Below, piece by piece: positions 44,801 through 63,462 of a DNA stretch of 64,000 nucleotides. Each line of letters starts with the position of its first letter. Position 1 is the stretch's first letter. The notes under the pieces were generated by a model. It was given only the letters and a program-made list of their open reading frames with translations. It was not told the origin of the DNA and did not search any database. This DNA is from a virus: the IMG/VR virus record IMGVR_UViG_3300050821_005389, positions 53,044 through 117,043 of that record. One strand, given 5' to 3'. Made by a program: the position numbers and the translations under genes.

Positions 44801-44894
44801 GTTCGCCTTATGTTCGCTCTAAAATACAGTAAAAACCTGATTAACAATAGAACAGTGATTCTGTACGCTCGACCTACAGCGCATTTTCAACTAT

Positions 44895-45171
44895 TCATTT
44901 TCCGTCTGGTAACACCTCTCCAAGAATAACCTCACAGAAAAACGGACCTATACCTAACCACTCTCTAAAAGAAGATATAGAAAACCCGTTTTTAGCGAGA
45001 TTGCAGCCTCGACACGTTTGAACAATACAATGACCTTTTTTACAATACACATGCTCTCTCGAAGGTGATGTAATGATCCCACGAGTCGTAGATAACTTCT
45101 CTCCACAATAGAAACATCTGTCATTTTATTTTCTTAGCTTTCCATGATTTAATAAAATCAGAATCGGCCAT
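44895..45171 (-). pseudogene. Frameshifted small HNH endonuclease
   Basis: MADSDFIKSWKAKKIK* then +1 frame NDRCFYCG...REHV...IVQTCRGCNLAK, which has no start codon upstream of the motif. Confidence 0.6.
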
Positions 45172-45788
45172 AATTAACGATTGTATTTTTTGGTTCTCCG
45201 ACTTGCGGCGGTAGCCCGCTCATCACGCCAAGCACGAAACTCGATTATTTTATTACGTATCCTAAATTCAAATATATGAACTAAACCACAATCACAACAC
45301 CTTATCTTATATCCCCTTACGAATTGGTCGAATCCAACACCCTGGTACTCCTTTAGCATATCGCATAAACAATCGTTTATTGTTTCTGTCTTTTAGCAGC
45401 AATAATCAGTTCGTACAAATCTTTAATCGCACTAACAGTTATAGAATCTTCAGTACCTACGTAGACTGTACCGTGTTTAAGAACAATTTTCGGATCGATA
45501 ATCTCTCCGTCTAGCCAGTAAGAACCGTCACAATCTATAGCCAAATGCACAGAAACCCCCACAAACAACTAACTGTTGTTTCTTTGGTAATTTAATGACG
45601 CTACACTATCTAATGCCGCAATAATCCACATCCACCACGGCACGGGAAAATGCCAAATTGACTTGGCGATAAATAAAATAACGATCATTATACCTCCACT
45701 CGGACTAATTTATAGATCGCCCATTCCGTTATCTGACCGTTGACAATTTTCCCAGAATATTTAAATTTAGGATAATCGTGTATCTTTT

Positions 45789-46160
45789 TCACTTTGATCT
45801 TTTTTTGAGCCAAGCTTTGTGCCTCTTCGTTCCGACTCTACCTGGGAATCCAATTGCTTGCCGGCCAATTATTTTGGAAAGCGGTGGATCCTTTAAGTAT
45901 TCTATCACTACGGCAAGAATCTGTAAAGTCCATAAGCGTTCTATTTTTCCTAAAAGTCGGTTGCATTGCGAGCATAGCAAACCGCGGGATTCGCCACTAG
46001 TGTGATTGTGATCGACCGCCAATCTTTTGCCTGATTTTTGAGATTTCTTGCAGAACCAACATAAGCCTTTCTGGTAGGCATTTACTAACTCCCACTCTTC
46101 GATTGATAAATCAAAGCAATCTCGGTACCGTTTGGCACGAGCGCGTTCTTTTGAATCCAA
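45789..46160 (-). CDS. Endonuclease VII domain protein
   Basis: Q.G.C..C, LAVDH.H..G..RGLLC..CN..LG. Confidence 0.85.
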   Translation of the reverse strand: MDSKERARAKRYRDCFDLSIEEWELVNAYQKGLCWFCKKSQKSGKRLAVDHNHTSGESRGLLCSQCNRLLGKIERLWTLQILAVVIEYLKDPPLSKIIGRQAIGFPGRVGTKRHKAWLKKRSK

Positions 46161-46409
46161 AAAACCTAGATACCTCGCAACATCAATCGCTTGTTGTTTC
46201 TCTTTGCCACCGCAACCAGCGGGTTACCATCATCTCTGTAATCTCGTTCTTCTCTTCTCGAGTTAAAGGAAGACGATCTTCATCTTCTTCGTCAAAATAA
46301 AAACCACTATCGTAGCCTTCGGTCATCCGCAATTCCGGTCCTAGACCGAGAATTCCTTGATTTGCATTAAGTACTCTACCGGATTTTAGTTTTATATCCA
46401 TAAAATCTA

Positions 46410-46556
46410 TGCTAGGACAACTCTGACCCCGGACTCAGGGAAGTAGTTGATCGTGTCCTTTGATCATTCCGTCCTAGCAACTCTTCTGGCGGAGTAGAAA
46501 CAGGCACCCACCCGTTCTGTGTCAAGAAAGGTTCCCCTTAATTGAATTCTCCGCCA
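46410..46556 (-). ncRNA. Two tandem 70-nt structured RNA elements
   Basis: Closing stems TGGCGGAG/CTCCGCCA and TGCTAGGAC/GTCCTAGCA with internal hairpins; intergenic. Confidence 0.45.
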
Positions 46557-47155
46557 AACTTTTATTTTCGCCGGCCGTGAATTTCATAAGTCTTTTTCAA
46601 TTGCGACTTGCTATCCAGCATACAAGGATCGTTGCCCTTGGCGATATCACCCATCAGGACTAATCCTATTATAGCATAAATCGACTCGATTCCCTTGTTC
46701 TCTTTGTACTTCTTCCGGAGCTCGGCTGAAAATGCTCGGTTGTCCAGAGTTTCCAGTCGTTCGCCCCACGTCATCGGTATCATTACGGCTCCTGTATTGT
46801 CGCATATAATGTCTGTGCTTTACCCTTATTGATACTTTGTGAAAATCTCTAAACGAAGCTTCGCGGCAAATGACAGAACAGTACGATTGTCTTTTGCCGC
46901 CACCTTGCGAGCGCTGGATCGGCGTGAATTCTTTTAAACACCAAAAACATAGTCTTGACATATTTAGCTTACTAGTAATTATCTTTTTTCAAAAAATCGT
47001 CTAAAGATGCGAGCAGAGCACCGCCAAAAGTAAATAGCAAGCCCATAACCATAGTTTCTGTTGAAAAAGGTTTCTCATTACCTAAACTGATGCCTATAGC
47101 CAGCAAAATAAGCCCCGTAAATCGAATCATTTTCTTCCTCACAATTAACACATTA

Positions 47156-47404
47156 TTATTTGTATCGCATCGCCGAAGCTACCGATTGAAGCACGTCTTC
47201 CGATACGTGCGTTGCATCGCCAAACCAATCGACGTTGGAGTGACTATACTGCCTGAAAGCCGGGTGAACTTTTGATAGACGGTATGAAAAACACCCGTCG
47301 GGACAGTGAAGTGGGTTTACATCCAAGACAAAAAACAATTGATAAACCCCGTTACCCCAAAATACGGGTTGCCCTTCTTTAAACTTTGGTTTTCTCTTTC
47401 GCAT
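47156..47404 (-). CDS. Small SH3-like protein, paralogue of 61276..61503
   Basis: Shared N-terminus RKPKF..GQ.V. Confidence 0.55.
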   Translation of the reverse strand: MRKRKPKFKEGQPVFWGNGVYQLFFVLDVNPLHCPDGCFSYRLSKVHPAFRQYSHSNVDWFGDATHVSEDVLQSVASAMRYK

Positions 47405-47423
47405 AATTAACGGTGTTTATGTC

Positions 47424-47717
47424 TCAAAAAATACTTAAATGAGCCGGCCGCAATACGAAGCATTTGTTGTTACCGGTTGCTTCAATCCACGCTTCCCCTT
47501 CTTTTTTATTTCCGAAAACCGCCTGCACATCTCCGTAAACGCGCCTCTTTTTCTTGCCCTCGCGTAACAAATAAGTAAATTTAGCCTCTACTTCTGCTCC
47601 GATAGATTCGTAGTCGTGAGGTCGGGGGGCTGATTCATGTTTATATTCCTCTGTGGTGCCTTTAGGCCACGTTACAACCCATACTTTTTCGATCCGTTTT
47701 GTTGACCTTACTGCCAT
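47424..47717 (-). CDS. Hypothetical protein
   Basis: AAGGAG RBS before ATG 47717. Confidence 0.55.
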   Translation of the reverse strand: MAVRSTKRIEKVWVVTWPKGTTEEYKHESAPRPHDYESIGAEVEAKFTYLLREGKKKRRVYGDVQAVFGNKKEGEAWIEATGNNKCFVLRPAHLSIF

Positions 47718-48003
47718 TTTATCTCCTTTCTTTTCTATCGCAGCTATGTACTGGTGCCTTGATTGTGTTTTTATGAGTATACGATAAAACAGTATATCAC
47801 ATAAATCCAACTGAGAAGTCCATGAAAAATAGCCAACCAAATACTATGCCAGCGGGCATAACTCAATACGATTGCCAACGCCGATCCGAAACTTATTCCG
47901 CTCTCGACATGAGATTCACTCATTCGCCGCCGACGATGCGACTGCGACCTGGTCGTCTCGATTCTCCTATGCGCCCTATTTTCATGATCTAAGATTTAAT
48001 TGC

Positions 48004-48453
48004 TCATTGTACCTGTTTTTTAGCTACCCGTTCCGCAAGCGCCATTAATTTTTTAAAATAATAGACCGAGTCCCGAAGTTCTTTTTTCACATCCTCTACC
48101 AACCACGGTTTATCCTCGCTTTTATATCCCTTTTCTCGTCCGTATTTCAAGTCATAAAAACAAAGATCGCCGCAATGAGCGTAGTCCCACCCGTACCAGT
48201 AAAAGCCCTGCGGCCACTCTTTACCGCCCTCGCCGGAATACGTTAAACCGCCGTTGCAAGGAATATTCAAATCATCTGAACTAAATCCGGCTAATGGATG
48301 ATCTTTAGGAACCCCGAGATAAGCGCACAAACAGGCGGGGCCGCGCAAAATTAATGCTCGAACACCATCTTCAAACTGGTCATAGTAAATTTTCCCTGGC
48401 GAATCTTCGGCCAGCTTTTTAAACGCGGTTAGATCTTGTGTTGTCATCGCCAA
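48004..48453 (-). CDS. Conserved phage protein
   Basis: C.Y..VP..HP, GGLTY, W.GWD.AH.GD pattern. Confidence 0.65.
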   Translation of the reverse strand: MAMTTQDLTAFKKLAEDSPGKIYYDQFEDGVRALILRGPACLCAYLGVPKDHPLAGFSSDDLNIPCNGGLTYSGEGGKEWPQGFYWYGWDYAHCGDLCFYDLKYGREKGYKSEDKPWLVEDVKKELRDSVYYFKKLMALAERVAKKQVQ

Positions 48454-48938
48454 GTCCGGTGTTTCTCTGCTATATGTTCATTTCCGTCATACTCTTCTAT
48501 TTCATAATCTGTACCATCCGGTATTTCCACGATAGACAATTCTGCACATTGCCCGCTGGCGCCTTTCCGATGCTCCCCGCCTAATTCTTCAATAACCTGA
48601 ATTAATTTAGGATCGCTACGGTCGATAGCCCTGCCGTTTTCGAGCGAGTGTTTTTCGTAACGCTCATTATAGCTTTTAAACAACCCGTCCGCATCACGCA
48701 CGGGGGCGCCAATTACTTCGCGAGGATTCGGAATATCAAAAGCTGACCACATCCTTAAACGATCGTTATCTGCTTCGATTTCTTCTAGTGTTCTAGGAAT
48801 CAGAACATCAAAATCCATCTTCGGTTCTCTTTGATAGGTGAAAAAATAACACTTGCGGCCGTTTAATTCCGCTAACCTTTTTACTGCCCTTGGAGATAAA
48901 CTAAAACCGCCAAAACAAGTATTAATCGCAACCTTCAT
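48444..48938 (-). CDS. Conserved phage protein
   Basis: N.CFGGF.LS, R.DP.L..V.EELG, IVEIP, IEEYDG.E pattern. Confidence 0.65.
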   Translation of the reverse strand: MKVAINTCFGGFSLSPRAVKRLAELNGRKCYFFTYQREPKMDFDVLIPRTLEEIEADNDRLRMWSAFDIPNPREVIGAPVRDADGLFKSYNERYEKHSLENGRAIDRSDPKLIQVIEELGGEHRKGASGQCAELSIVEIPDGTDYEIEEYDGNEHIAEKHRTWR

Positions 48939-49891
48939 TGTACCTCCTTCGGCAAATCAAATCCAAGCCCAGCTTTTTGTACCGCTTCTTTTCTCAGATC
49001 AATATTTTGAGCGAGTTTACTGTAACGGTCCGTTATACTGGAATTTGACGAATGACCGGCCCAGAACTTAATCAGATCCTCTTGGATCAGTTGGCTCCGT
49101 AAGTGTGTGATTCTAAAGCGCCTAAAGGAATGGTACCCCGGCAAATTTATCTTTTTACTCCACCCGTAGACAGTCGGAAGCGATAGGGGTCGCCCGTTTT
49201 TAGATTGAAACAAATACTCTCCGTCTTTTCTCTTTTCTGAAGAAACAAAATTAAGTAAATAGTAATTAGCAGACTCGCAAAGATCGATCTGCCTGATTCC
49301 GGCGTCGGTTTTCGGACTTTGTTCCAATCCTTTGTAAATCTGGGCCTTCACCGAAATGACAGCCTTGTCAGGATCCCACAGTGTAGGACCGGGCTTCGAA
49401 TCATCAAGAACTACTGCGCCCCGCTTCACCGACAACGCCTCACTGATCCGCAGTCCTGAAGCTCCTAATAGTACGCACAACGTCCTAAACTGCCCGCTAG
49501 TGCGTGCCAGTGCGGCTTCTAAAGCCTCTCGTGATAGGATTGGGCCTTCCTGGTCTCGAGGGTTGACAGGTGGACTGTCTATGAAAGAATTGTTCCACTG
49601 GACGGGGTGCAAGTAGTCGCCATTTTCGTTCACGGCCGATTTTATAACACCCTTGACACAATTGACCACGCCTGCGATCGACGCAGGCGACAATTGCTTC
49701 GCCGCAAGCTTTTCCACGAACTTCTTCATGGCGCCGTTCTTGATCTCTGACAAATCCATTTGACCTAGATGCGGAATAATATGGTTCTTCAGATAACTCC
49801 GGTAGGCTTGCAAGGTATTACCCGTGGCCGGATCGCGTTTTCTATTCTCTAGGTTCGCGATGTAAATTTCGGATTGTTGTTCGATGTTCAT
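48935..49891 (-). CDS. Tyrosine recombinase/integrase with no apparent arm-binding domain
   Basis: Core-binding domain (T...Y....HI.P.LG...L..I); catalytic set G.R..E, PKT, HSFR, GH, D.Y intact. Confidence 0.9.
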   Translation of the reverse strand: MNIEQQSEIYIANLENRKRDPATGNTLQAYRSYLKNHIIPHLGQMDLSEIKNGAMKKFVEKLAAKQLSPASIAGVVNCVKGVIKSAVNENGDYLHPVQWNNSFIDSPPVNPRDQEGPILSREALEAALARTSGQFRTLCVLLGASGLRISEALSVKRGAVVLDDSKPGPTLWDPDKAVISVKAQIYKGLEQSPKTDAGIRQIDLCESANYYLLNFVSSEKRKDGEYLFQSKNGRPLSLPTVYGWSKKINLPGYHSFRRFRITHLRSQLIQEDLIKFWAGHSSNSSITDRYSKLAQNIDLRKEAVQKAGLGFDLPKEVQ

Positions 49892-49893
49892 TT

Positions 49894-50646
49894 TTACTTG
49901 ATTTTATCGTTTGAGTTATAACCATCATGAATCCAATTTTGCCAATGAGGCAATAGATCGTGTTGGTTTGTCGTTCCTAAGCCGGCACAATCAAAACCCG
50001 CGCATTCCGCAATTGGCTCCATGCACCAAGCTACAGATGTGTCTTCGCCGGTTTTTGATTCTTCAACTTTCCAGCCTTTTGGGCAAACCCAATGCTTAGG
50101 TGTTATTACACAACCCAAACTTGATTTTCCGTATTCATCCGCCCCACATTCCGGACCAAGTTTTTCATAACCTTTATTTCTAACTAGTTTTGGTTCCGGA
50201 CGAGATACCTCTATATTAACTTTAGCTGATGGCGGTTCGTGCCAAAAACTAGTCTCTTTACCAATCCTATCGAACTGATCTGTTTTAGGTGGGGGAACAA
50301 ATCTTTCCTTACAACCGCTTATACAGCGAACATACGGACTTACAGAAGCAACACACGACGATAAGGTTGGATACCAATACGTTTCATCCAGTGTCCAATA
50401 TTGATATCCGTCCTTAGATACCTGAACCTCACATCGATGAACTTCACACGCGGTATGATCGTCCGCGCATCCAAAAGCTCGCGGTTCGCTTACCCAATTC
50501 GGGCCGTCATAGTAATTCGCATCATCGTCTATTTTCTCCGGACTTAAACTAGTAACACTAAGCCAAGAGCATGGAATAAACTCCCCGTGTTTTACACACT
50601 TTTGAACCGGAGATAAAAGAATCGCGAAAACAATCAGACTCCACAT
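49894..50646 (-). CDS. Secreted Cys-rich protein
   Basis: Hydrophobic N-terminus; HW.CPKGW.VE...AWCM module shared with 56849..57556. Confidence 0.6.
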   Translation of the reverse strand: MWSLIVFAILLSPVQKCVKHGEFIPCSWLSVTSLSPEKIDDDANYYDGPNWVSEPRAFGCADDHTACEVHRCEVQVSKDGYQYWTLDETYWYPTLSSCVASVSPYVRCISGCKERFVPPPKTDQFDRIGKETSFWHEPPSAKVNIEVSRPEPKLVRNKGYEKLGPECGADEYGKSSLGCVITPKHWVCPKGWKVEESKTGEDTSVAWCMEPIAECAGFDCAGLGTTNQHDLLPHWQNWIHDGYNSNDKIK

Positions 50647-50691
50647 ATCGGCTCCTTTGTTTTCTATGGCTAACAGATAATTCTAGATTGA

Positions 50692-51051
50692 TTACGTCAC
50701 AGATGCGTATTCTGGTTCTTGAACGTTTTCCGGCAAGAACGTTTCTTCGGCTGGCTCGACAGATCGAACATAATCTATTAACTCATCAAGTGATTGCTCT
50801 CCTTTTGCCACCCGATGAGCCATCTCGCTTATTATCGTTATAGGTTTTGCAGTCCAATCATCTGTACCGTTCAACCAAGGCCAGTGTACAAAAATTTGAT
50901 CTAAACGTTCGATCTTGACTTCACCTATAGCCGCTAATCCCATTCCTATTGCGCAACCAACACATTCGCCTTTATCGTTCGGCCACAGAAACTTGGTAGA
51001 ATCAAACTTAACCAATGTTCTCCCGAGCCCGATCGCATCCGAAAGCCGCAT
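50692..51051 (-). CDS. Hypothetical protein
   Basis: AAGGAG RBS. Confidence 0.6.
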   Translation of the reverse strand: MRLSDAIGLGRTLVKFDSTKFLWPNDKGECVGCAIGMGLAAIGEVKIERLDQIFVHWPWLNGTDDWTAKPITIISEMAHRVAKGEQSLDELIDYVRSVEPAEETFLPENVQEPEYASVT

Positions 51052-51082
51052 TTTTATCTCCTTTGCTGTCTATAGCTACTAT

Positions 51083-51379
51083 TTAAGTTCTACTTGTTTC
51101 TCTTACAGGTAAATTAAAAGAAAAAGGTTTTACCGGACGATCACAACACAAATCCTCAATGAATTTAATGACTTTCTTGGGAAGGCGTTTCGGATTTTTA
51201 GCTCGCGTAACAGGCATGAGCGGTCCAGTAGTTGTATAACAACTGGAATAAATGTAGTCAAAAACAAACCCGGCTCTTTTACAAGCTAGGGCTATCGGAC
51301 ACCTTCGACCGTCGACTACATTTCGTTTACCCAACTCTATGTCACTTTTTGTTACCGTTATCTTCATTATCTCCTCCAA
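51083..51379 (-). CDS. Hypothetical protein, paralogue of 60084..60326
   Basis: KI.VT..DI..G...CP..LA..R...FI......VKPFSF. Confidence 0.65.
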   Translation of the reverse strand: MEEIMKITVTKSDIELGKRNVVDGRRCPIALACKRAGFVFDYIYSSCYTTTGPLMPVTRAKNPKRLPKKVIKFIEDLCCDRPVKPFSFNLPVRETSRT

Positions 51380-51388
51380 CGAAATTAA

Positions 51389-51417
51389 ATCCTAGTTGAT
51401 AATGTCACTAATGTCAA
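51389..51417 (-). promoter_or_regulatory. Sigma70-type promoter overlapped by a junction site
   Basis: TTGACA-17-TAGGAT; also a TGACATTA direct repeat. Confidence 0.6.
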
Positions 51418-52238
51418 GGTTTTTTTACAATAGCTTGAGTTTTATCATCTTTTTTCACGCTGAGGTCCCAAGGATTAGTAAAAATGCTTGTTCCGTACAT
51501 CATCATATCTTTATACGCTATCATATCTTTATACGCCTGTATTTGTTTTTGTTGCATAACTAACATCCACTGTTGCTGTTGCTGCAATCGCGCCACTCCC
51601 ATTGAGTAGCTTGAATACATCGCCATGTACGGATCATTAACCTCGGCCAACTTTAATCTATCTTTTTTCAATTCTTCTCGCAAACAAACCGACACCCCGT
51701 AGTTTTCTTCTATCTGCATCGCAGCCAATGGATCAAAATCATCCCCTACGTAGAACTCTTTAGGATAAGCGAACTCTGAAAGATACCCTATTGCGTGTTC
51801 TTTAACTTCTCCCCACATATAAACGGCACCGGCCACCCCACACCTATCTGGTTTTGCTTGTCCCGTTGGATTGAACGCAGAAGGCGCACTAGAACACCCT
51901 AAACAATACTCTTTCAACAACGGAATTACAGTTTTATATTCTTTTACGGCGTGAATGCCTTTGTTATCATAAATATCTCGAGTTAGCATTTTTCTATGCG
52001 GCCATTTTACTTCAGATTTGTAGGCGGATCGGAGATAACCGTCGTCGTAAACCCACACACGATACCCCACTATCAATTCAGCCAAAATTTCCGGAGGTTG
52101 TTTAGACAACTCTTCTAGGGCTGCCTTTTTGCCGGCCTCAAAAGCCGTCGAGCGGATAAATTCAATTTCCCGCTTCTGATCCCAATATATAGGATGTGTG
52201 GGATCGAACTCATAACTGGGATAGTAAGGATTCGCCAT
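51414..52238 (-). CDS. Conserved protein, possible ADP-ribosyltransferase-like fold
   Basis: GYRVW, GIHA, G.V..WG.V.EH..GY.SE; poly-Q, Met-rich tail. Confidence 0.5.
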   Translation of the reverse strand: MANPYYPSYEFDPTHPIYWDQKREIEFIRSTAFEAGKKAALEELSKQPPEILAELIVGYRVWVYDDGYLRSAYKSEVKWPHRKMLTRDIYDNKGIHAVKEYKTVIPLLKEYCLGCSSAPSAFNPTGQAKPDRCGVAGAVYMWGEVKEHAIGYLSEFAYPKEFYVGDDFDPLAAMQIEENYGVSVCLREELKKDRLKLAEVNDPYMAMYSSYSMGVARLQQQQQWMLVMQQKQIQAYKDMIAYKDMMMYGTSIFTNPWDLSVKKDDKTQAIVKKP

Positions 52239-52364
52239 TTATACCTTCTCTGGCTGCTCAACCGGAGTTTCACGATGATCCGGCTGCCGCTCAGTCTCTC
52301 TTTGCGGCACAGGTATAGTTTGTGGCTTCACGATCGTAGTTCGTTTATACTCTCCGATGTCCAT
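52239..52364 (-). CDS. 41-aa Pro/Glu-rich peptide (not in ORF track)
   Basis: AAAGGAG RBS; MDIGEYKRTTIVKPQTIPVPQRETERQPDHRETPVEQPEKV; TAA directly abuts the next ATG. Confidence 0.65.
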   Translation of the reverse strand: MDIGEYKRTTIVKPQTIPVPQRETERQPDHRETPVEQPEKV

Positions 52365-52637: not shown

Positions 52638-52674
52638 AACCCTTTACTTTCTATACCTAAGATTTAGCTGTATC

Positions 52675-53131
52675 TTAATTATGTTTTACAAACTCAATTA
52701 ATGGGCATACGCGATCGTGGCCGGCTTTTACACGGCTTTTTAGCACCTGCCTAAACGACACAACAATATCGCTCGTTTTGGCTTTATCTTCCCAAAACCA
52801 GCAAATTACGCCTAGAATACAAACCCACAAACATATGCCGCATAATCTCCACGGCGTGTAACAGAGCGAGCAAACCCCTCGTGCCCGCAAGCCTATAGAT
52901 CAAACCCACAAAAGAGACTAGCAAAACAGGAATCGTCGCCCAAATACGAGGCGGCGAAAATAAAAATCTAGCCGGCGCCCATAATAAAACAGCGCGTACA
53001 TAAGGACACAAATTATACGGACGATCCGAGCCATACCACTCGTCAAAAGAAAAACCTTTCTTCTTTTTAAACCATCCGTTGAAGACTCGAAAATGCCAAG
53101 TATCTCGTGAAATTTTCATGTATCCTCGCAT
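52675..53131 (-). pseudogene. Membrane protein split by a +1 frameshift near 52850
   Basis: The two overlapping ORFs join into one continuous TM protein ending VCPLIEF; bounded by two junction sites. Confidence 0.5.
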
Positions 53132-53141
53132 AATTAAGCAG

Positions 53142-53519
53142 CTATTGTTTTTGATTCCTGTTCTCTTCGATCAACTCGTCAATCTTTTTCGCCATGAATA
53201 TAGCACCACTTTGTCCGCGTTGGTTAGTGTGTATCTGAAACAAATTGTAAGCTTGATCTTGAGTTAACCCCAATAGTTTACGAGCCGTATTGTGCCAAAA
53301 ATTCATCGAATAATGAGTATTCGCACGATCAATGTATTTCTCCCGTTTCTTGTTATTTGTAAGACCTTTCCCTAATATTACCGCCCAACCAGCAATACAA
53401 GCTTGTGTTCCGCACGGAGCTTCCTCTTCATCAACGTTCACAGCCCAATTATTCATTTCCAAACGTCGTGGTTCAGCTAAAATGTGCTTTTTTACTTTTC
53501 GAAGCAAAGGAACGTTCAT
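53142..53519 (-). CDS. Conserved phage protein
   Basis: M..W...CGT.ACIAGWA...A..LLGL......LF. Confidence 0.65.
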   Translation of the reverse strand: MNVPLLRKVKKHILAEPRRLEMNNWAVNVDEEEAPCGTQACIAGWAVILGKGLTNNKKREKYIDRANTHYSMNFWHNTARKLLGLTQDQAYNLFQIHTNQRGQSGAIFMAKKIDELIEENRNQKQ

Positions 53520-53556
53520 TTTTTTTTATATCCTTTAGACTCAATTGCTGATGCAT

Positions 53557-53586
53557 AAGGTAGCATTGATTGTGTTTTTGTGTCAA
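53557..53586 (-). promoter_or_regulatory. Sigma70-type promoter with extended -10
   Basis: TTGACA-18-TACCTT preceded by TG. Confidence 0.55.
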
Positions 53587-54659: not shown

Positions 54660-54661
54660 AA

Positions 54662-54928
54662 TTAAGAGTATATTGTATCTCTAATAGATTGACAGCCAAC
54701 GTCTTCACTTTTTACTGGATCACCGTCTACTACTATATCAAAATCCGTCGGAACCCATCGGTCATCGTCGTTTTCAAATTTTATTTTAAAAGATGCGTAA
54801 TGGCTAACGTCAGACTTGCTTGTAAGCAGTAAACTTTTAGTCACATCAGAAATCAACCACGCCGCTTCCTCTTTAGATAGGCTCAGTATCAATTGGTTGC
54901 CGTGCGCGTTGTGAAATTCAATCTTCAT
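54662..54928 (-). CDS. Hypothetical protein
   Basis: GGAG RBS before MKIEFH. Confidence 0.5.
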   Translation of the reverse strand: MKIEFHNAHGNQLILSLSKEEAAWLISDVTKSLLLTSKSDVSHYASFKIKFENDDDRWVPTDFDIVVDGDPVKSEDVGCQSIRDTIYS

Positions 54929-55549: not shown

Positions 55550-55577
55550 ATCGTCTCCTTACAGAATTAGTGATACG

Positions 55578-55772
55578 TTAATTACTTTTTTCTTCCCAAT
55601 AGTAAGTATCTCTAAGATCGTCCATCGACTCACCCAACGCATCGCATTGATTAGAGGCATAAATAAATCCGTAGCTAACCCAATTCCTGAGCGCCTGCCA
55701 GAAGCGCATGTCTGGATTCGCATAACAATACTCAACAAACGATTTCAATACTTCCGAGTTTCTCGTTGTCAT
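55578..55772 (-). CDS. Hypothetical protein
   Basis: P..RF.Q motif; GAGG RBS; bounded by junction sites. Confidence 0.55.
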   Translation of the reverse strand: MTTRNSEVLKSFVEYCYANPDMRFWQALRNWVSYGFIYASNQCDALGESMDDLRDTYYWEEKSN

Positions 55773-55821
55773 CAATCCTCACAATTAATACGCACTTGAT
55801 TACCAAAATCTTACATCGAAA

Positions 55822-56385
55822 CTACTGCAAACTAAAACTCTGCTTCAAACTTCCTTTTGGAATGTGAAAATCCATCCGAAGTCTATCGTCTGGATATGTA
55901 AACCAGTTCATCCATTCGTTTTTCAAGTGAATATCGAACTGTTGAACCTCTCCCCCTTCGCGCTCTTCCTCAAATATCGAAGTGTCTGAATTAGCTTTCC
56001 ATTGATGTGGCTGGAAGGATCCGTCATTCTTCAAGGTATAGTAGTGATAAACTTGCACGGAGTCTATGCGGCCCGCGATCATAAAAACTCCTCCCGCGAT
56101 TTCTCCGTGGACTCCATCAGCGTTTCGCATGCTAACCATTTTCCCCGTCCAATGGAGATGCCAAACCTTCACCGTGTGATCTTGGATAACGGATGAAACT
56201 CCAAAAGCCGCTCCGACCATAAGCATCTCGCACACAATTAAAACAAGACAAGCCATCACCACTGGCATTATCATATCGAAATACTTGTCACTTCCACCGC
56301 TCCACCACGGCCAATTTCTCTTCGCAACATAAAGAGCTAGCAGGATCGGTATCGATATAAATAACGGAAACCAAATGGGTTTCAT
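55822..56385 (-). CDS. Membrane protein
   Basis: Two N-terminal TM helices, G.I....Y.YY, IPKGS; AAGGAG RBS. Confidence 0.65.
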   Translation of the reverse strand: MKPIWFPLFISIPILLALYVAKRNWPWWSGGSDKYFDMIMPVVMACLVLIVCEMLMVGAAFGVSSVIQDHTVKVWHLHWTGKMVSMRNADGVHGEIAGGVFMIAGRIDSVQVYHYYTLKNDGSFQPHQWKANSDTSIFEEEREGGEVQQFDIHLKNEWMNWFTYPDDRLRMDFHIPKGSLKQSFSLQ

Positions 56386-56427
56386 ATTTCTCCTTCGATT
56401 ATAAAAGCCTACATAAACAATAAAGGA

Positions 56428-56847
56428 TTATTTATCTTCTTTTTGACACTCTTTCCATTCGGGTTTAGGATAAACTTGCACACTATCAATCCATTCCTGC
56501 TCGCAAGTGCCGCGCATATATTCTTCCTTTGTGATCTCTACCCATTTACCGTTTTTTCGAACCTGCCATTTTTCAGATTGCACACACTTACCGTTCTTCC
56601 AATCTGAGTTTCGTTCGTGAATATAATCACCACCAAATTCCGCTTCGCCCATCTCGCCGCACCACATCTTATCGAACCATTCGTCGGCTTTCTTCTTTTC
56701 TTTTGGCGTGTAGCATCCTGGCGTATAAACCGCGTCGCTAGTCGCTATCCCGCCTGCATACACATAACCCTCGGGACACTTGCCGTCTACCCGCTTAGGG
56801 CCGTGCCACGAAAAAGCTTGTAAAAGTAATATCGCTTCTAAGAGCAT
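56428..56847 (-). CDS. Secreted Cys-rich protein
   Basis: MLLEAILLLQ leader, CPEGY motif. Confidence 0.55.
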   Translation of the reverse strand: MLLEAILLLQAFSWHGPKRVDGKCPEGYVYAGGIATSDAVYTPGCYTPKEKKKADEWFDKMWCGEMGEAEFGGDYIHERNSDWKNGKCVQSEKWQVRKNGKWVEITKEEYMRGTCEQEWIDSVQVYPKPEWKECQKEDK

Positions 56848-56848
56848 T

Positions 56849-57556
56849 TTAGTCTCCACAAAGAAAAGGTCCAGGCATGTCCATATGACAAAAATTGCCG
56901 GCCTTACGACACTCATCCAGCCACTTTACGGTATACGCCTGCGCCGCTAGTTGCTCTGCGCAATATCGCCATGTCTTATTCTTAGGCTCAACTGTACCGC
57001 GTTCAATCCAATCTCTCAAATATTTGAAATCTGGATCGTTCAGGCTTGATCCCCTACTCACTCCGCCATTATCATCTACCGTTTCATAGGACTTCATACA
57101 CCACGCTCGGCCGTCTCCAAATTGAATAGATTCATCGTATATTTCTGTCTCAACTACCCAGCCTTTCGGACACATCCAATGGCCGGGATCGTTATATGTA
57201 CTTGGATGCCAATGGGCTTCAGGACGAGCTAAAATTATTACCGACGTAGGATCTTTAGAAACCGGACAATTATTCTTTACCCAATCTAAAGCATCACTTA
57301 GAGCGGCATCCTCCGTATTGTATCTGCGTGGAGTAGTTGACATCCAATCGTCACCGGGATAGAAAAACCACATCGTTTTGCCCGTGTTTGTTTGAACATT
57401 ACCGAAAACTCTGTTGTTTTCGTCGCACACCACTCCAAAATCGTCTTCAGATATTTGAATTATGTGGGCGCCGAGGACAGCAACAGGAACCATTTTCTGT
57501 TTATCTTTTTGCGTGACTTGGAGTTGCATCAAAATCAACAACACTGCTGTTAGCAT
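56849..57556 (-). CDS. Secreted Cys-rich protein
   Basis: AGGAGG RBS, MLTAVLLILMQ leader, HWMCPKGWVVE...AWCM. Confidence 0.6.
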   Translation of the reverse strand: MLTAVLLILMQLQVTQKDKQKMVPVAVLGAHIIQISEDDFGVVCDENNRVFGNVQTNTGKTMWFFYPGDDWMSTTPRRYNTEDAALSDALDWVKNNCPVSKDPTSVIILARPEAHWHPSTYNDPGHWMCPKGWVVETEIYDESIQFGDGRAWCMKSYETVDDNGGVSRGSSLNDPDFKYLRDWIERGTVEPKNKTWRYCAEQLAAQAYTVKWLDECRKAGNFCHMDMPGPFLCGD

Positions 57557-57576
57557 TTGATCCTCCTAAATGAATC

Positions 57577-57680
57577 AGCACCCGCAGGCTCACGTTACTC
57601 CCGTACCGCAGCCCGGCCACTCGGCTCTTCCTATCGGTTCGCACCTTTAAGGATTTTAGAGTAGTGACTGTGCGGGTGCT
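57577..57680 (-). ncRNA. 104-nt structured RNA candidate
   Basis: 10-bp stem AGCACCCGCA/TGCGGGTGCT extended by TCAC/GTGA and TACTCT/GGAGTA; inner stems ACCG/CGGT and AGCC/GGCT. Confidence 0.5.
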
Positions 57681-57685
57681 AAACC

Positions 57686-58012
57686 TTAGCGCCCATCTCT
57701 GGCGATAGTCTGTTTTAACGATCCCGATACCTTCTGGCCTACTAGCGTACTCTGATCGTCCAGAAAATACTCGTAAGCTACTAGAAGCTTCACGACTGGC
57801 TCCGGCGGCTCTTTCGCTGTTTTAGTAATGAACCAATTACGAGCCTTATTTTCTCGAGTCTCGACGCGACCGCGGTTTGACGACTTAGCATCAGCGCGAG
57901 GACACTGCTCGTGAAAGTACAATCTCCGTGAATTCCCACCGCTGTTTTCTGTCTCTGCATAAGCTCTAGTACCGATTACCGAAATACCGCAATGATGACA
58001 TTCGTAGGCCAT
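57686..58012 (-). CDS. Zn-finger-like hypothetical protein
   Basis: CHHC...FHEQC; GAGGAG upstream. Confidence 0.55.
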   Translation of the reverse strand: MAYECHHCGISVIGTRAYAETENSGGNSRRLYFHEQCPRADAKSSNRGRVETRENKARNWFITKTAKEPPEPVVKLLVAYEYFLDDQSTLVGQKVSGSLKQTIARDGR

Positions 58013-58017
58013 TTCTA

Positions 58018-58046
58018 TTTGTAACTCCTCTCAGAATAAATGTCAA
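58018..58046 (-). promoter_or_regulatory. Sigma70-type promoter
   Basis: TTGACA-17-TACAAA. Confidence 0.45.
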
Positions 58047-58378
58047 GAACTTTTTTGCTTTTTGGCAACATTTTGCAATACACGATCAGCGGTCTTTCTA
58101 GAAGCGAAAAGGAAAGCATCCATTTTCTCTATTTCTTTGGCCAAATTCTGTTGACTGTTGCAAACCCCGAATTCCTTTTTGCAATGCGGGCAAACGTAAA
58201 GCATTTTCATTCTCCGTTTAGAATTTTAATTTTAAAATCACTCTATAGATCCCGTGGAAGTTTCGGACTAGGCCGACAATTAAATATACGATTAGCGCCA
58301 CCACAACGATACCGGACACGGCATATAGCAGCGCGCCTAATATCAACAGCCAGCCGATCGAGTGCAATGCTTCTAGCA

Positions 58379-58756
58379 CTACTCTGTTCCCGTGCCGATG
58401 ACGTTAACTCCGAAGCTCTGGCCGTCTTCTAGCTTCGTAACAGTCACAACGCCGGATCGCAAACCAGTAGCTGACGGCTTGAATATAATCGCCACGAAGC
58501 AGGTTTGCTTTGAAAGAAGGCCGCAATTTGGCTGTTGTACACTGAATTGGGGGTTATCAGAAACAACATTGACTGCTACGGGCGCCGTACCGATGTTCTT
58601 GACAGTGAAGTAAGTCAATGAGCCAGAATATTGACCGACCGTTTCACTGCCACAATCTAAATTGCGTGGGGTTACTTGAATTGATCCGGATGTAGGTGAT
58701 TGAGCCGACGTTGCAAAAGCGATTCCGAGAACTGCTAACATCACGACTTTTTTCAT
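58379..58756 (-). CDS. Secreted Ig-like protein (choice-of-anchor D / ASPM-SPD-2-Hydin type)
   Basis: Signal peptide MKKVVMLAVLGIAFATSA; P..L..G...VG, V.N.G, F, C...C.V.I.F.P..TG...G, G.G. Confidence 0.75.
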   Translation of the reverse strand: MKKVVMLAVLGIAFATSAQSPTSGSIQVTPRNLDCGSETVGQYSGSLTYFTVKNIGTAPVAVNVVSDNPQFSVQQPNCGLLSKQTCFVAIIFKPSATGLRSGVVTVTKLEDGQSFGVNVIGTGTE

Positions 58757-58787
58757 TGTTTTCTCCTTTTTAACTTGGCCCGATGCT

Positions 58788-58816
58788 TTAATACCAAAAC
58801 CAAGGAAAGATGTCAA
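58788..58816 (-). promoter_or_regulatory. Sigma70-type promoter
   Basis: TTGACA-17-TATTAA upstream of the Ig-like gene. Confidence 0.6.
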
Positions 58817-58849
58817 GAGAAATCAGAAACAAATGTACATTGTTTTTGT

Positions 58850-59293
58850 TTATGCTCTACCGCGACCGTGGCAATGCTCGCACACTTTCCAGGCTTTACG
58901 TTCTTCGTATTTCTGTTCTGCATGCAATCTATTTCCAGCTTCTTTCTCTGGTCTCTCCGGACCAGCGGCATCGAATAGCGGCCACAGTTCCTTTGGGTAG
59001 CTCGGATAACAGGGGTACTGAGGGCGCATCTTTCTCTTACGGCAAGCATAAACGGTGCCCGCGTAAGCCGAACCGCCCACTCCGAGAACTCTTTCGCAAT
59101 CTAAAATAGTCTCGTGGAGCAGTGGCAAGTCACTCGGCGTGATGTCTTCAGCATCGGCGCAGGCCCAATAAAACAGGTCATTGCAATTTTCTGCGATAGA
59201 AATGCCATCGTCAGTGTCGAAGTAAAACATATCTACGGCCATATCGCGCTCAATCAAGAAACGCAAAACCTCTATTGCTTCAGCGTCTTTCAT
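58850..59293 (-). CDS. Conserved phage protein with C-terminal CxxCxG
   Basis: CNDLF.WA.AD.E.I, R..RPQ; ATGA overlap. Confidence 0.6.
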   Translation of the reverse strand: MKDAEAIEVLRFLIERDMAVDMFYFDTDDGISIAENCNDLFYWACADAEDITPSDLPLLHETILDCERVLGVGGSAYAGTVYACRKRKMRPQYPCYPSYPKELWPLFDAAGPERPEKEAGNRLHAEQKYEERKAWKVCEHCHGRGRA

Positions 59294-59538
59294 CGTCCCA
59301 AGTCCTCTACTTTCACACCACATCCGAGATAATCAAATTGTGCTCCAGCCCAACCATAAGCTTCCCAATGGGCTATTTGACCCGATGGCGAATTTGTTAA
59401 AGTACAAGTCACCTTGTATTTCTCGGGGTGTTTGGCATACCAACGATCAGCATCGTGCTTTCCGACCTGATACCATCCGAAGCAACCTACAATGAGTATT
59501 AGCACGTATGCAAAACCAGCTACGATCCCTTTAATCAT
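59290..59538 (-). CDS. Small membrane protein, paralogue of 61500..61748
   Basis: TM helix followed by DRWYA.HP. Confidence 0.55.
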   Translation of the reverse strand: MIKGIVAGFAYVLILIVGCFGWYQVGKHDADRWYAKHPEKYKVTCTLTNSPSGQIAHWEAYGWAGAQFDYLGCGVKVEDLGR

Positions 59539-59558
59539 TTTGCCTCACAATTACGTAG

Positions 59559-61748
59559 TCACTTAATTTTAGGCCCCGCGCCAGATAAGGCAGCCTCCAG
59601 CGCAGCGATTCGGTGGCACCATACGCAGTTACAGTTCGCTTCGTGAATCCACTTCGGGTCTATCTCTCGCCTCCACCACTTTGCTTCTTCAAGTTGCGCT
59701 GCGGCCCGTAGCTCTGTATGGGAGGACGCTGCCTGGCGGACGACCGCGTGACCGTGAGGAAAAAGTCCGTAGCAGTCCGGGCATTCAACCATCAGCCTTC
59801 CGCATGGAGTCATCATCAGTCCAAACTCTTCTCTCTGCGATGGAACTGCACGTGGCGGCTCGCTGGCTGGAGGCTCTGCCTTTGGCAAGTGATGGTTCTT
59901 TGGCAGGTTGCAAGGCTCCGGCTCGTTGCACGTGCATTCAACTGGATAATCATGGTCGCAACAATGGCAGCATCCCGCCTTGTGTACTCCGGTTGGACAT
60001 GGCTCGCTCATTTTCCCTTTTCCCCTTTCTGCCCCGCAAAAATAAACTGCTTTGCGCTTAAGTGCGAAGTCCAGTTCGCGCAACTACCAATCCAATTCAA
60101 AAGAGAACGGCTTCACGCGATGCTCAGTGTCGAATGCTCGAATAAATGCGCAGACATTGTCAGGAAACCTGATGCACCTATTTCCAGTCTTCTCGCTACA
60201 AAATCCGAACGTGTACACCCAGGTCGGAGCGATTCCCCTTCGACGCAATGCTAAGAATACTGGGCAAGCATCACCCTTGCTGCTTTTACCTTTCTGAATA
60301 TCTTGCTTTGTGACTCGTATTTTCACTTGCGCTCCCCTTTCTGCCCTGGCTGTGCGGCCAGCGTGCATCTGTGCAGCGTCCAGTTTGTGTTGGGATAAAT
60401 CGGGGTGCTCGGATAATCGAATTGCTCCCCGCCGGACTCCAAAGCCAATCTGCAAACAAGCTCTCCGCATCCTTCGCATTTATGCGGCCCGTAATAGACT
60501 AGCGCTGGGTCGAGCGTTATCTCAAGAATGCGATTGTCTCGCTGCGTTTGTCCGCATTCCGCTCCCGTTGGCTCCGGCGTGGGCGCTGCACGCATATTCC
60601 ATAGAGCATCTATTAGCAACTCCACGCAATTCTTACCTGGATTGTCGAATACCATCTGCTGCAAATCCATCCCTCTCTCTTTAGCCCACGCGAAGCAAGG
60701 TAGAACATAATCGCGCTCATAGTCCGGTCCCGTGGGCGTGGCTGGTGCGAGGGAGCGTTCGGCGGCGGCGATACTGTAATCGGGAGTGTCGTTTCTCATT
60801 GCCATTGCACACGCATACGCTCCCTGAATTTGAGAATCCGAAAGTTCATTCTTGCCCTGACGGATTCTCTCGGCACACCACGCCTCTATTGCGTGCGGCG
60901 CTGCGGTGTCGCGTCCCAAAAGAACAAACAGCATTTCGGTCTCAGTGGCGCGATTCAAACAACTGCTTGGCTCAGATAGCTCCTGCTTCTTTCTCATCGT
61001 CGGTCTCCCTCACGTCACTTGGTTGGGTCATGGCATTTGCCTCGCAATCACGTTGGGAATCGTACAGATATTTAGATGCTCAGTGTAAAGTTCCATTGCC
61101 TTCTCTGCCCGTTGGGTTTCGGCCCACGCGTACTCTCTAAGCCACTCTCTCAATTCGTGAACGTCCCAGGGCATTCGGCCCTTGCTATTTGTGAACATCA
61201 CAGCAGTATCTATCCTAAATTTGAGATTCGGTTTCATTGCGTCGTCCATTCCCCCCTCCCCTTGAATCGGCGGCATCAGCGCGGGCCGATTTCACGCTTG
61301 GTTAGCGGTCGCAAATCTTTCCCTTTCCACCACACTTGCCCGTAGATGCCACGCTGATTTGAGTAAACAGTCGGCCCTTTGAAATGCAAGTGGGAGCGCA
61401 CGCTACGAATTTTGATGAACGTATCCCGGTTATGAATAACACGCACAACTTGCCCCACGCGAAACTTCGGCTTGCGCTTCGGCTTCCTGTCAGCTTGGGT
61501 CATCGGGTTTCCTCAAATCTGCAAGGTGCCTCGCTCTTACAGGGCTGATTGCATGGGAACTCTTTTCCTTCTGATGTGAAGCAGTGAAATTCCTGTGCCC
61601 ACTTGTGCGGGACTGCGTAAGTTATCGTGCAAGGCGGGTGTGCTGCGTACCAGCGGTCAATCCCTCGATGTTCACGGTGCACGATAAGAATTGTGCTGAA
61701 TATCCACAGGGCGGCTACAAAAATCACCTTGCTTATCTTGTCGCTCAT
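59559..61748 (-). other. Block of coupled small hypothetical genes (about 59559-60008, 60084-60326, 60323-60997, 61028-61276, 61276-61503, 61500-61748)
   Basis: Overlapping start/stop codons; 60323..60997 carries E.LFVLLGRD..AP..I..W; appears more GC-rich than its flanks. Confidence 0.55.
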
Positions 61749-61797
61749 TCTCTTTGGCCTCCTCGGGGCGCGGCGCTCATAATCACTTACTCGTTAA

Positions 61798-62854
61798 TTA
61801 CCACTCGTTCGATACTTCGGATTCCCTAAATTTCTTTACGCGCAAAGTGCAATCGGCACAAACAGGCAACGCGCCAGGTTTTGAGCGACACAAGTACGTA
61901 TGGCCTAAAATAAAACACGCCGTCCGATTCCAGATTAACACAAGCGGATGCTCGATCCAACGGGGCAATTTCAATCCACCTTTGCCAGCGTACCGCAATC
62001 TTTTTTCTGATAATGCTACACCTAACCTTCGCATAATTAGTCACCCGTTAATTCTGTTGTTTTCGTTCCTCTTCTACCGCTTCGCGCACAATTCTTTCTA
62101 CTTCTTTCATCACTTCGATATCTCCGCCCGCATTTGGATAACCTCGCAACGAACCTACAACCATATTTAACATGTCGGTTGACGATATAATCCAATGCTC
62201 TTGTGCATAGTCTTGCATCATCTGACGAGCTTCCCACAAGGGTTTATCAAACAGAGTCCAAGCGAATGCTAATAGCTCCCTTGTTTCTTGATCACTTAAA
62301 ATCATTTTCTATACCTCGCAAATTGCTCTATAAACCTCATGGAACTTTTATCCGATCCAGGAATTTTAGAGTTTATCTCCACACCGCGCATCTGCTGGCC
62401 CATGTAAATACGGCATGAATTTATGTGATGCCCGAAACGCGCAAGCCGGAGAACAATATAGACGTCCACCCGTAAGCCAAATCGCGCCTTTATTTCGGCA
62501 ATCCTTTTTAATCGCTTTCTTCGCTCGCATGATCGCTCCTAATTAATACTCGTTTGTTTACGCTTTAGACGTTCCAGCACGCACCACGTTCTTTTCAAAG
62601 TACTTTCGTGCCTTCTCTATGAACGCATTTGTTTCAACCTCGGTGCGAAAGACTTCTACATCTTGAGTCAATATCGTAGAGTAATCTAAATTACCATCGG
62701 GATTCAACACAGCGGCTTCCCAAGCGTATTTATAGGCATGAGCCATCGGCGAATTGATTAAGGACAAACCCCAACCGTTAGAAAACCTATACACTCTGTT
62801 AATGCCGCCGATCTCGTTAGGATTTTCCGATTCTAAATTTTTATTCGTTAACAT
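61798..62854 (-). other. Four small genes (61798-62034, 62048-62305, about 62366-62530, 62558-62854), mostly separated by junction sites
   Basis: RBSs present; 62558..62854 has an F.NG.G.S...WE.AV...L.Y.T....DV pattern. Confidence 0.55.
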
Positions 62855-62888
62855 TGTCTTGCCTCCTAATCAAATATTCATTGATTCT

Positions 62889-63431
62889 CTAACCCCACCG
62901 ACCGCAACTAGGGCATTTTAGCGTTCGCGGAGTTGAATCTTGCTCCCAAGACATTTTATATTTCTCTGGTTCAAGAACAAAACAAGCTATATGACGCCCT
63001 GTTCCTTTGCCAGCCGATTGATCTTCAGTAGCCAGCCAACGAACATCTCCGAGGTTCTTGATCATTGCGCCGGCCTTAACTAACATTAAAACCCATTTGT
63101 CAATCGGATAGACTAAAACAACCCGTTTACCTTTTTGATATTCCGCAATTGCTTTTCTAACCCAAGCAGTAGCGCCTTTCTTCTTATCTTCGTGCATCAC
63201 GGATCCGAATGGCGGATTAACATAATTTGACTTTCCCCATTCACAAGTTAATCCGTCAAAATCATCCGGCTTAGGATAGGGTGCCGGATCAAAATCGAAA
63301 TGGTACTGCGCGTCTAACTCGGCATACAATTCTGGTGGCGTCAACCAATAATGTTTAGCGTCACCCGTATTGCCCACATGAAACTTGTTCAGCTTAGGAT
63401 CCAATCGCCCCGACTTGTCTTTCTTAGCCAC
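62889..63431 (-). CDS. Phage DNA N6-adenine methyltransferase
   Basis: W.TP..L...L....F.FDP, DGL...W, VNPPF. Confidence 0.85.
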   Translation of the reverse strand: MAKKDKSGRLDPKLNKFHVGNTGDAKHYWLTPPELYAELDAQYHFDFDPAPYPKPDDFDGLTCEWGKSNYVNPPFGSVMHEDKKKGATAWVRKAIAEYQKGKRVVLVYPIDKWVLMLVKAGAMIKNLGDVRWLATEDQSAGKGTGRHIACFVLEPEKYKMSWEQDSTPRTLKCPSCGRWG

Positions 63432-63462
63432 CTAACCTCACAATCACTAAGTATTTGATTCT

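Follow-up and report, generated by a model that had tools for sequence, protein, structure and literature searches.

A near-symmetric site repeated at gene ends in the small-gene region of an uncultured soil phage, and a tyrosine recombinase as its candidate binder

In the last 64,000 nucleotides (nt) of the virus record IMGVR_UViG_3300050821_005389 of IMG/VR (positions 53,044 to 117,043; this stretch is the window, numbered from its first letter), many small genes are separated by a short sequence with two inverted arms. What is this junction site for? The preliminary description of this DNA offered two answers: an integron-like array of gene cassettes run by the tyrosine recombinase encoded at 48935-49891, or a multi-site repressor system. 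The motif is real, and the core observation is confirmed. Judged from sequence, the sites look like a repeat type already known from other phages, which resembles the binding sites of a regulatory protein rather than integron cassettes. Our tentative preference is for a multi-site operator or roadblock array, like the repeats of Cluster O mycobacteriophages and the stoperators, with the tyrosine recombinase as the leading candidate binder.

Enrichment of the junction site

Is the motif more frequent than chance would give? In the window, the pattern AAWYA-N9-TRWTT has 14 matches, while 2.89 ± 1.74 were expected from shuffled sequence and none of 100 shuffles reached 14. All 14 strict matches lie at or past 45367, and none in 1-44 kb, which agrees with the earlier remark that it was not noticed at junctions there.

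The record is a single virus sequence of 117,043 bp, rated 100% complete by CheckV, and DNA of the phage occurs in soil metagenome runs. Both contig ends lie inside the 15-nt-period DNA of a pentapeptide-repeat gene, and the first 20 bases of the record equal the last 20. The small-gene region therefore continues from the end of the window into genome positions 1-4,500. It covers about 24 kb (23.8 kb), is transcribed from the minus strand, and has 59 open reading frame (ORF) calls at a coding density of 83%; gene calls here are simple ORF calls. The ORF starting at genome 229 runs across the contig join and its reading frame is lost there, so the repeat number of the gene is probably mis-assembled, and the record is probably circularly permuted or closed.

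Window 63463-64000 and genome 1-229: pentapeptide-repeat gene DNA with 15-nt tandem repeats; the contig ends lie inside it

In the whole genome, the gap of 9 gives 23 matches, of which 19 fall within the small-gene region, where the same arms yield 0-5 at each of the other gaps between 0 and 30. With arms of 6 bp (AAWYAA-N7-TTRWTT), there are 14 perfect and 26 11/12 sites genome-wide; the control spacers 4, 5, 6, 8, 9 and 10 give 0-1 perfect and 9-17 at 11/12. Within the region alone, 13 sites at 11/12 have spacer 7, and control gaps have 2-6; for the 10/12 class there is no enrichment (26 at spacer 7, 18-44 at control spacers). Sites were scored over the 12 positions of these arms, and those reaching at least 11/12, 27 in the region, form the convincing class. 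Two of them, at window 49249 and 50108, lie inside ORFs, consistent with the chance background, so that about 25 functional copies are supported.

How does this compare with the first count? Each of the 12 copies formerly called good is present at its position. Among the 11 listed variants, those at 50675, 51383 and 54660 reach 11/12, while the other eight (44842, 45759, 46962, 47994, 52662, 53553, 55342 and 59549) score only 8-10/12 and cannot be separated from chance, because the 10/12 class shows no enrichment. Two junction sites at 11/12, window 46181 and 51081, had escaped that list. The array had also been bounded at 44842-63460, but it crosses the contig ends, with seven more sites past the window edge at genome 240, 882, 1411, 1768, 2320, 2512 and 3245. 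The sites in the window are as follows.

45367-45385, minus strand: junction site, 12/12 (AAACAATAAACGATTGTTT on the coding strand), overlapping the upstream stop (-9)
45563-45581, minus strand: junction site, 12/12, -13 from the stop
46181-46199, minus strand: junction site, 11/12, -17 from the stop, upstream of an endonuclease VII-like gene
47143-47161, minus strand: junction site, 12/12, followed by a GTGAGG ribosome-binding site
50675-50693, minus strand: junction site, 11/12, upstream of the 250-aa gene preceding the recombinase
51081-51099, minus strand: junction site, 11/12, -17 from the stop
51383-51401, minus strand: site, 11/12, overlapping the -10 (TAGGAT) of promoter 51417-51389 of the recombinase operon
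53132-53150, minus strand: junction site, 12/12
53553-53586, minus strand: promoter TTGACA-N18-TACCTT, whose spacer contains an AATCAA half-site; the full site is only 10/12
54660-54678, minus strand: junction site, 11/12, directly upstream of a C5 methyltransferase gene
55565-55583, minus strand: junction site, 11/12
55783-55801, minus strand: junction site, 12/12
56415-56433, minus strand: junction site, 12/12
58788-58845, minus strand: site at 12/12 (58827-58845), 10 T-rich nt and promoter TTGACA-N17-TATTAA, in the terminator-hairpin slot of GC-rich relatives
61781-61799, minus strand: junction site, 11/12
62035-62053, minus strand: junction site, 11/12, whose left arm supplies the TAA stop
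62541-62559, minus strand: junction site, 12/12
62868-62886, minus strand: junction site, 12/12
63442-63460, minus strand: junction site, 11/12, 2 nt past the stop of the pentapeptide-repeat gene; the homologue in the relative G001 has a site there

Anatomy of the site

What kind of molecule could recognize such a site? Base counts over 26 sites give the consensus CAy-AAWYAA-t-N5-a-TTRWTT-rTG, a near-symmetric duplex site of 25 bp. The second base before the first arm is A in 19/26, and the second base after the second arm is T in 21/26; one base further out, C or G is found in 23/26 before the first arm, and G in 20/26 after the second. The first and last spacer positions lean to T (14/26) and A (17/26). 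Half-sites of about 10 bp (CAyAAWYAAt), each with an information content of about 9 bits, thus stand in inverted orientation around a free centre of 5 bp. The 27 sites have 27 distinct central 7-mers, also when reverse complements are counted as equal, in line with the earlier observation that the spacer differs in every copy. The recurrence of TAATTGTGAGG holds as well, with all four occurrences on the coding strand. The polarity formerly ascribed to the site is not borne out. Its flanks are mirror-symmetric, and the supposed RTG end is the outer palindrome arm plus the ribosome-binding site that follows; the residual asymmetry comes from this downstream GAGG and from upstream coding constraints.

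Is the symmetry that of an RNA hairpin? When folded as RNA of 25 nt, the sites have a mean minimum free energy of -1.56 kcal/mol compared with -0.92 for shuffles, and 9 of 25 form no structure. In a hand tally, both arms are of the same variant in 9 of 19 copies, slightly above the level for independent arms (chance level estimated). As stable hairpins are not formed, we take the element to act as duplex DNA, and on the sequence its geometry is that of a site for two subunits.

Position at gene ends and promoters

Where do the sites lie relative to genes? Among those of at least 11/12, 25 of 27 start between -17 and +20 nt from the end of the upstream stop, while 11% of positions qualify as near-stop. 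The left arm often supplies the TAA of the upstream gene: it contains this stop (AATTAA or AAATAA) in 10 of 19 copies. The distance to the next start codon is usually 7-33 nt with the ribosome-binding site directly after the site; GTGAGG or AGGAGG adjoins the 3' arm in many copies. Where the gap to the start is 70-80 nt (genome 882, genome 3245 and window 58827), the site remains at the upstream stop and is followed by 10-11 T-rich nt and then a TTGACA-N17 promoter. In the GC-rich relatives L016, L019 and L021, the counterpart of this promoter slot is a canonical GC hairpin with a T-run upstream of the recombinase promoter. The preliminary description had many intervals holding one gene; this is true for 10 of the 22 inter-site intervals, while 5 hold two and the rest 3-7 ORFs.

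A few sites lie on promoters themselves. The site at 51383 covers the -10 of the TTGACA-N17-TAGGAT promoter at 51417-51389, which heads an operon of genes for 98, 119, 250, 318 (the recombinase), 164 and 149 aa. Two further covered -10 elements are found in the relative G001, of which one belongs to the recombinase promoter. At the other, a site overlaps both the -10 (TATGTT) of a TTGACA-N18 promoter and the start of tRNA-His (55879-55953; L040 1522-1596), which begins 2 nt after the junction-type site. Neither sigma-70 promoters (35 found in the scan, 30.7 expected) nor canonical terminators (24 in the region, 19.4 ± 4.1 expected) are enriched. In the ESM Atlas, the first gene downstream of the covered promoter matched only viral clusters without names.

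The tyrosine recombinase

Is there a protein in this phage which fits the site? The candidate is encoded in the array itself:

48935-49891, minus strand: arm-less tyrosine recombinase of 318 aa, assigned by phrog_1, Pfam and catalytic residues; candidate site-binding protein

It matches the phrog_1 integrase family with E = 6.5e-31 and the SAM-like core-binding domains of Pfam, with a catalytic domain match just below the cut-off. In an alignment with 24 homologues, the residues R148, K194, H254, R257, H280 and Y290 are invariant. An arm-binding domain is lacking. In a sequence search of solved structures, the nearest is the Tn1549 integrase (E = 2.6e-12), and the nine matches do not include MrpR, the recombinase-fold repressor of phage SPbeta. 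The best NCBIfam matches are weak ones to XerA, XerD and XerC, all far below their cut-offs. The gene lies in the middle of the array, co-directional with its neighbours and overlapping them, and the array has several internal promoters. Together with the endonuclease VII-like gene, it is the only accessory-region gene matched in all four compared relatives. Alignment of the recombinase gave 33 loci, the nearest with 53% identity; the closest homologues (60-73% identity) are on contigs of 1-3 kb. Homologues are found on many viral contigs of about 100 kb, and one distant homologue is on a record classed as provirus.

Several side observations concern the surroundings of this gene in other genomes. 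In L005, L006, L012, L016, L018-L020 and L023, the recombinase has its own conserved promoter upstream of position 10001, with cTTGACA, a GAAA-containing spacer, an extended -10 TG and an atypical -10 that begins with G (GACTAT, GACAGT); a terminator hairpin with a T-run precedes it in several GC-rich relatives. On five contigs of Candidatus Acidoferrales metagenome-assembled genomes (L056-L060, about 10001-11650), a homologue lies directly beside a pentapeptide-repeat gene in four, as in G001. The identity is 37-39% in L056-L058 and L060, and 30% in L059, which has no pentapeptide match. No other phage genes are near these pairs, and L057 and L058 carry two divergent recombinase genes. The pairs may be a hint at the host (Acidobacteriota) or a mobile two-gene module. 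They were all that a search of GTDB genomes for prophage att sites returned, with no sites found.

Other candidates for a binder were sought as well. A six-frame search of the genome found no HTH_3, HTH_17, HU/IHF, RHH or ParB domain, though folds without annotation are possible, and a phyletic profile for clade-specific binders gave no DNA-binding candidate. A 129-aa protein (window 30827-31216, minus strand), present in all four compared relatives, has a weak helix-turn-helix match resembling sigma-70 region 4, below the cut-off with E = 0.026, and might control middle or late genes as a transcription factor. Outside the array, a non-coding gap of about 700 nt at genome 4447-5168 separates divergent gene blocks; in it, the words TGTGAC(G)/GTCACA recur in the surroundings of a TTGACA promoter that heads the early operon. 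Possibly this is an origin or a switch with an operator of its own, distinct from the junction site.

Distribution in related phages

Does the site follow the recombinase? Four relatives were compared:

G001: motif present; major capsid identity 90%, recombinase identity 54%
G002: motif present; major capsid identity 82%, recombinase identity 36%
G008: motif present; major capsid identity 76%, recombinase identity 46%
G009: motif absent; major capsid identity 37%, recombinase identity 42%

The half-site AATCAA-N7-TTGATT is kept in the motif-bearing clade, whose GC content is 43-51%, with 5 perfect sites in G001, 5 in G002 and 2 in G008, compared with 0-1 at control gaps; G009 has no perfect sites. 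The replication and structural genes of G001 (110,892 bp) are collinear with those of this phage, and its recombinase is 53-54% identical. The accessory regions share only about 5 genes, two of them in different order. G001 has 7 convincing sites overall, with GA...TC flanks, and one of them lies 1 nt past the stop of the pentapeptide gene, the same placement as here. Its early region is equally variable, yet it holds only 4 sites. Beyond the clade, each of 21 further records with homologous recombinases has 0-1 perfect sites, and the first 34.2 kb of G005 is not enriched.

When homologues of the site-flanked genes were followed in G001, G002, G008 and G009, a site of at least 11/12 stood after the stop in only 1 of 8. 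No relative close enough for mapping of breakpoints was found in INPHARED, IMG/VR or the recombinase loci. INPHARED gave at the DNA level only short methyltransferase or repeat matches, with at most 35% identity for the DNA polymerase, and a single-protein search of IMG/VR gave no match for the recombinase and two for the DNA polymerase at 33%.

Is a similar site used elsewhere? A scan of IMG/VR for the site followed by GTGAGG gave 46 contigs with one match each, which is about a rough estimate of chance, and none had an excess specific to the 7-nt gap except an unrelated AT-rich viral contig, L100. This contig of 29% GC has 4 perfect AAWYAA-N7-TTRWTT sites compared with 0-1 at other gaps, which may have arisen by chance in AT-rich DNA or reflect a similar site that is used independently. 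A de novo dyad search in 20-kb loci of the relatives revealed no shared motif, only the 15-nt pentapeptide repeats and a 22-bp element of L035. That element, GGGAGTnAnCTATATAATTCCC, occurs in 7 copies in about 10 kb (L035 141-9935, and L034 about 9900), in either orientation, and has a possible 8-bp stem needing a G-U pair on one strand only. In four copies, among them the copy that precedes the recombinase promoter, a TTGA(CA) -35 box follows at a distance of 11 nt. It is a lineage-specific counterpart of the junction site. Different lineages thus use different junction elements, since L035 and L034 carry their own.

Comparison with known systems

Which known system is the array most like? 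Cluster O mycobacteriophages have more than 30 copies of a 17-bp dyad repeat, TGTTCGGNNNCCGAACA, of unknown function; the copies are mostly intergenic, densest in a long one-direction operon of small non-structural genes, and for the most part away from promoters, they are predicted to bind a dimeric protein, and they are not implicated in rearrangements (PMC4351075). The likeness is descriptive and implies no homology: tens of short dyad repeats, mainly intergenic, dense in an early operon and mostly off promoters. The sequences are unrelated. The Cluster O repeat has invariant 7-bp arms around a 3-bp gap and about one third of its copies are intragenic, while the arms here are 9-10 bp, degenerate (W, Y), and set around a 5-bp centre, with 2 of 27 sites intragenic. 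Cluster O phages are described as having no integrase; in this clade, a tyrosine recombinase is conserved.

A stoperator is a 13-bp asymmetric site that points along transcription, and its copies throughout the genome are bound by a monomeric helix-turn-helix repressor. In Cluster A phages such as L5, tens of these repressor sites lie in short intergenic spaces, and their factor represses an early promoter and blocks elongation at many junctions (PMC9283540). The placement of 25 of 27 sites at gene ends, and of one over the -10 at 51417-51389, is similar here. The junction sites differ in being mirror-symmetric and confined to the early region, and the repressor-type domains HTH_3, HTH_17 and RHH were not found in the six-frame search, only the weak match to sigma region 4.

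Could a recombinase act as a regulator of many sites? A precedent is MrpR of SPbeta, a repressor of tyrosine-recombinase fold on about 10 repeated SPBRE sites in one phage genome; it is without catalytic residues, and its sites are in promoter regions (PMC10516654). The present case is different, with the catalytic hexad intact and most sites at promoter-less junctions. PeSL cassettes of T4-type phages are repeated junction elements in hyperplastic regions of small ORFan genes, composed of a stable terminator hairpin and a promoter and recombining by homology (PMC2839356). The likeness is in repeated junction elements among small genes, in three copies here that consist of a site, a T-run and a sigma-70-type promoter, and in the terminator-promoter composites that relatives have at the same place. 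The present sites differ in having no stable stem, in that only 3 of 25 have a T-run and a TTGACA promoter, and in identical runs of 9-14 bp.

Integron cassettes or recombination sites?

The integron-like cassette array proposed at first is not supported. A tyrosine recombinase, sites at the 3' ends of genes and some single-gene intervals do recall integrons. The attC sites of integrons, however, are imperfect inverted repeats of 57-141 nt which fold as single-strand hairpins, and no such fold is seen in these sites of 19-25 bp, more than a third of which form no structure. Against the integron-integrase model TIGR02249 (integrase_gron), the recombinase scores 19.1 bits with a cut-off of 265, so it is not of the IntI type. 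A platform with integrase, attI and Pc at one end is not found: the recombinase gene is in mid-array, with promoters at several places. Nor do the sites travel with genes, as the 1 of 8 homologues indicates, and the 27 centres all differ. A 12-bp direct repeat around the gene at 62889-63431 was tried as an insertion footprint and rejected. Identical runs between site copies are 9-14 bp, and those of 12-14 bp are shared by copies that do not adjoin each other (window 56415 and genome 240, or window 47143 and 55783, for instance); the repeat is thus explained by the extended consensus.

In a different proposal, the phage recombinase uses the sites as recombination cores, where crossovers insert, excise or exchange the intervening genes. 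In one variant, modules would be swapped between co-infecting genomes at equivalent junctions, and the early region would be a cassette platform. We consider this possible, though rather unlikely. Simple sites of tyrosine recombinases (loxP, dif, FRT) have inverted arms of about 9-13 bp around a centre of 6-8 bp. With arms of 9-10 bp and a free centre of 5 bp (7 bp including the weak t and a), the junction site appears to match such cores, and the arm-less enzyme of about 320 aa, with its six invariant catalytic residues, would suit them. The sites hug gene 3' ends, nearly half of the intervals hold a single ORF, the gene content shared with G001 is small and partly reordered, and downstream of the pentapeptide gene, G001 has retained the site in a different context. 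But loxP, dif and FRT occur as one or a few sites with matching centres, which classical tyrosine recombinases need, and here about 25 sites have no shared crossover sequence. Tn916/Tn1549-type enzymes tolerate non-identical crossover regions, and the nearest solved relative is of that type. Still, G001 is as variable with only 4 sites, the repeat at 62889-63431 is matched between sites that are not neighbours, sites seldom follow their genes, and their position over -10 elements points to regulation.

Might both be true? It is a decidedly unlikely case, in our estimate, that the arm-less, catalytically intact enzyme both regulates and recombines at the junction sites, so that gene boundaries would be programmed crossover points. 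With unique centres, exchange would then be limited to the corresponding junction in a co-infecting relative, unless such differences are tolerated in the manner of Tn916/Tn1549.

A proposed operator or roadblock array

The multi-site repressor alternative of the preliminary description is the better fit, as the sites cover promoter -10 elements and have the geometry of a two-subunit duplex site. How would such an array work? The element would be a duplex-DNA binding site for a protein that is dimeric or binds as two monomers, and about 25 copies of it follow or overlap the stops of early or accessory genes in a one-direction stretch of 24 kb. Bound protein would cover the -10 of a few early promoters, and at the many promoter-less junctions it would stand in the way of elongating RNA polymerase as a roadblock or insulator, so that a single factor could turn off the entire early/accessory region or divide it into parts. 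If the recombinase at 48935-49891 is the binder, it would also regulate its own operon. An array that acts on transcription is suggested by the symmetric duplex site, the confinement to one transcription unit, the placement at gene ends, the terminator slots and the three covered -10 elements. The identity of the binder is the weakest step of the explanation. The recombinase is the best candidate because it is conserved in the compared relatives, the promoter of its operon is covered by a site in two phages, the geometry fits, and MrpR gives a precedent.

Several findings weigh against this explanation. About 19 of 25 sites are without a recognisable promoter, and three are upstream of the -35 rather than over the promoter. 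The half-site centres are about 15 bp apart, which is unusual for classical helix-turn-helix dimers. The recombinase retains its full catalytic set, unlike MrpR, and the records with homologous recombinases beyond the clade are nearly devoid of perfect sites. Motif presence tracks the core-genome clade and not the similarity of the recombinase, so the binder could be another clade-specific protein or a host factor. This leads to the proposal that a nucleoid-associated protein or global regulator of the host, or another clade-specific phage protein in a DNA process other than transcription, binds the sites, with roles such as genome organisation, replication or protection of the early region. 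It would also agree with the GC range of the clade, with an AATCAA half-site unchanged across recombinases that are only 36-54% identical, with outer flanks that differ (CAy...rTG here, GA...TC in G001), and with the fact that no annotated repressor was found in the genome. We regard it as unlikely. No candidate host factor is known and the host hints from the Acidoferrales contigs are weak, while transcriptional logic better explains why the sites are confined to gene ends in a single 24-kb transcription unit.

Could the element work in mRNA or be no element at all? As a small hairpin or AU-rich box, it might control re-initiation, RNase processing or the binding of a translational repressor. 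It is placed between the stop codon and the next Shine-Dalgarno, which its 3' arm often abuts, and the start-associated sequences of Cluster K are a precedent of start-linked repeats. This is nonetheless very improbable: folding is weak or absent, arm variants agree only slightly above chance, and the symmetry reaches both flanks, as in duplex recognition. At the long gaps, moreover, the site stays at the upstream stop, and it would be outside the downstream mRNA because it precedes the next promoter. As to a by-product of composition, without function, short AT-rich gaps with a TAA stop, an AT-rich linker and a ribosome-binding site might give such a pattern, and about half of the left arms do double as stops. 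It is hardly credible when the enrichment is at one gap length only, against the gap controls, when stop-free arms (AAACAA, AATCAA) are equally common, when intergenic gaps elsewhere in the genome lack the motif, and when three related phages keep it.

Significance

Several phage groups are known to have dyad repeats in many copies at their gene junctions, mostly with unknown function. What does this case add? It comes from a clade of uncultured soil phages, in which the repeat is conserved in three to four genomes and expanded five-fold in one, and it ties the repeat to gene ends and to the operon promoter of a conserved, catalytically intact, arm-less tyrosine recombinase. The conserved recombinase and the site make a concrete candidate pair of protein and site. 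If another factor binds, the array would be a further case of stoperator-like silencing of an early region. If the recombinase binds, it would link regulation by a recombinase as repressor, of the MrpR type, with a possibly still active enzyme. And if it also recombines the sites, this would be a new route to phage mosaicism; with both roles in one protein, a virulent-looking phage would have a site-specific engine for modular gene exchange.

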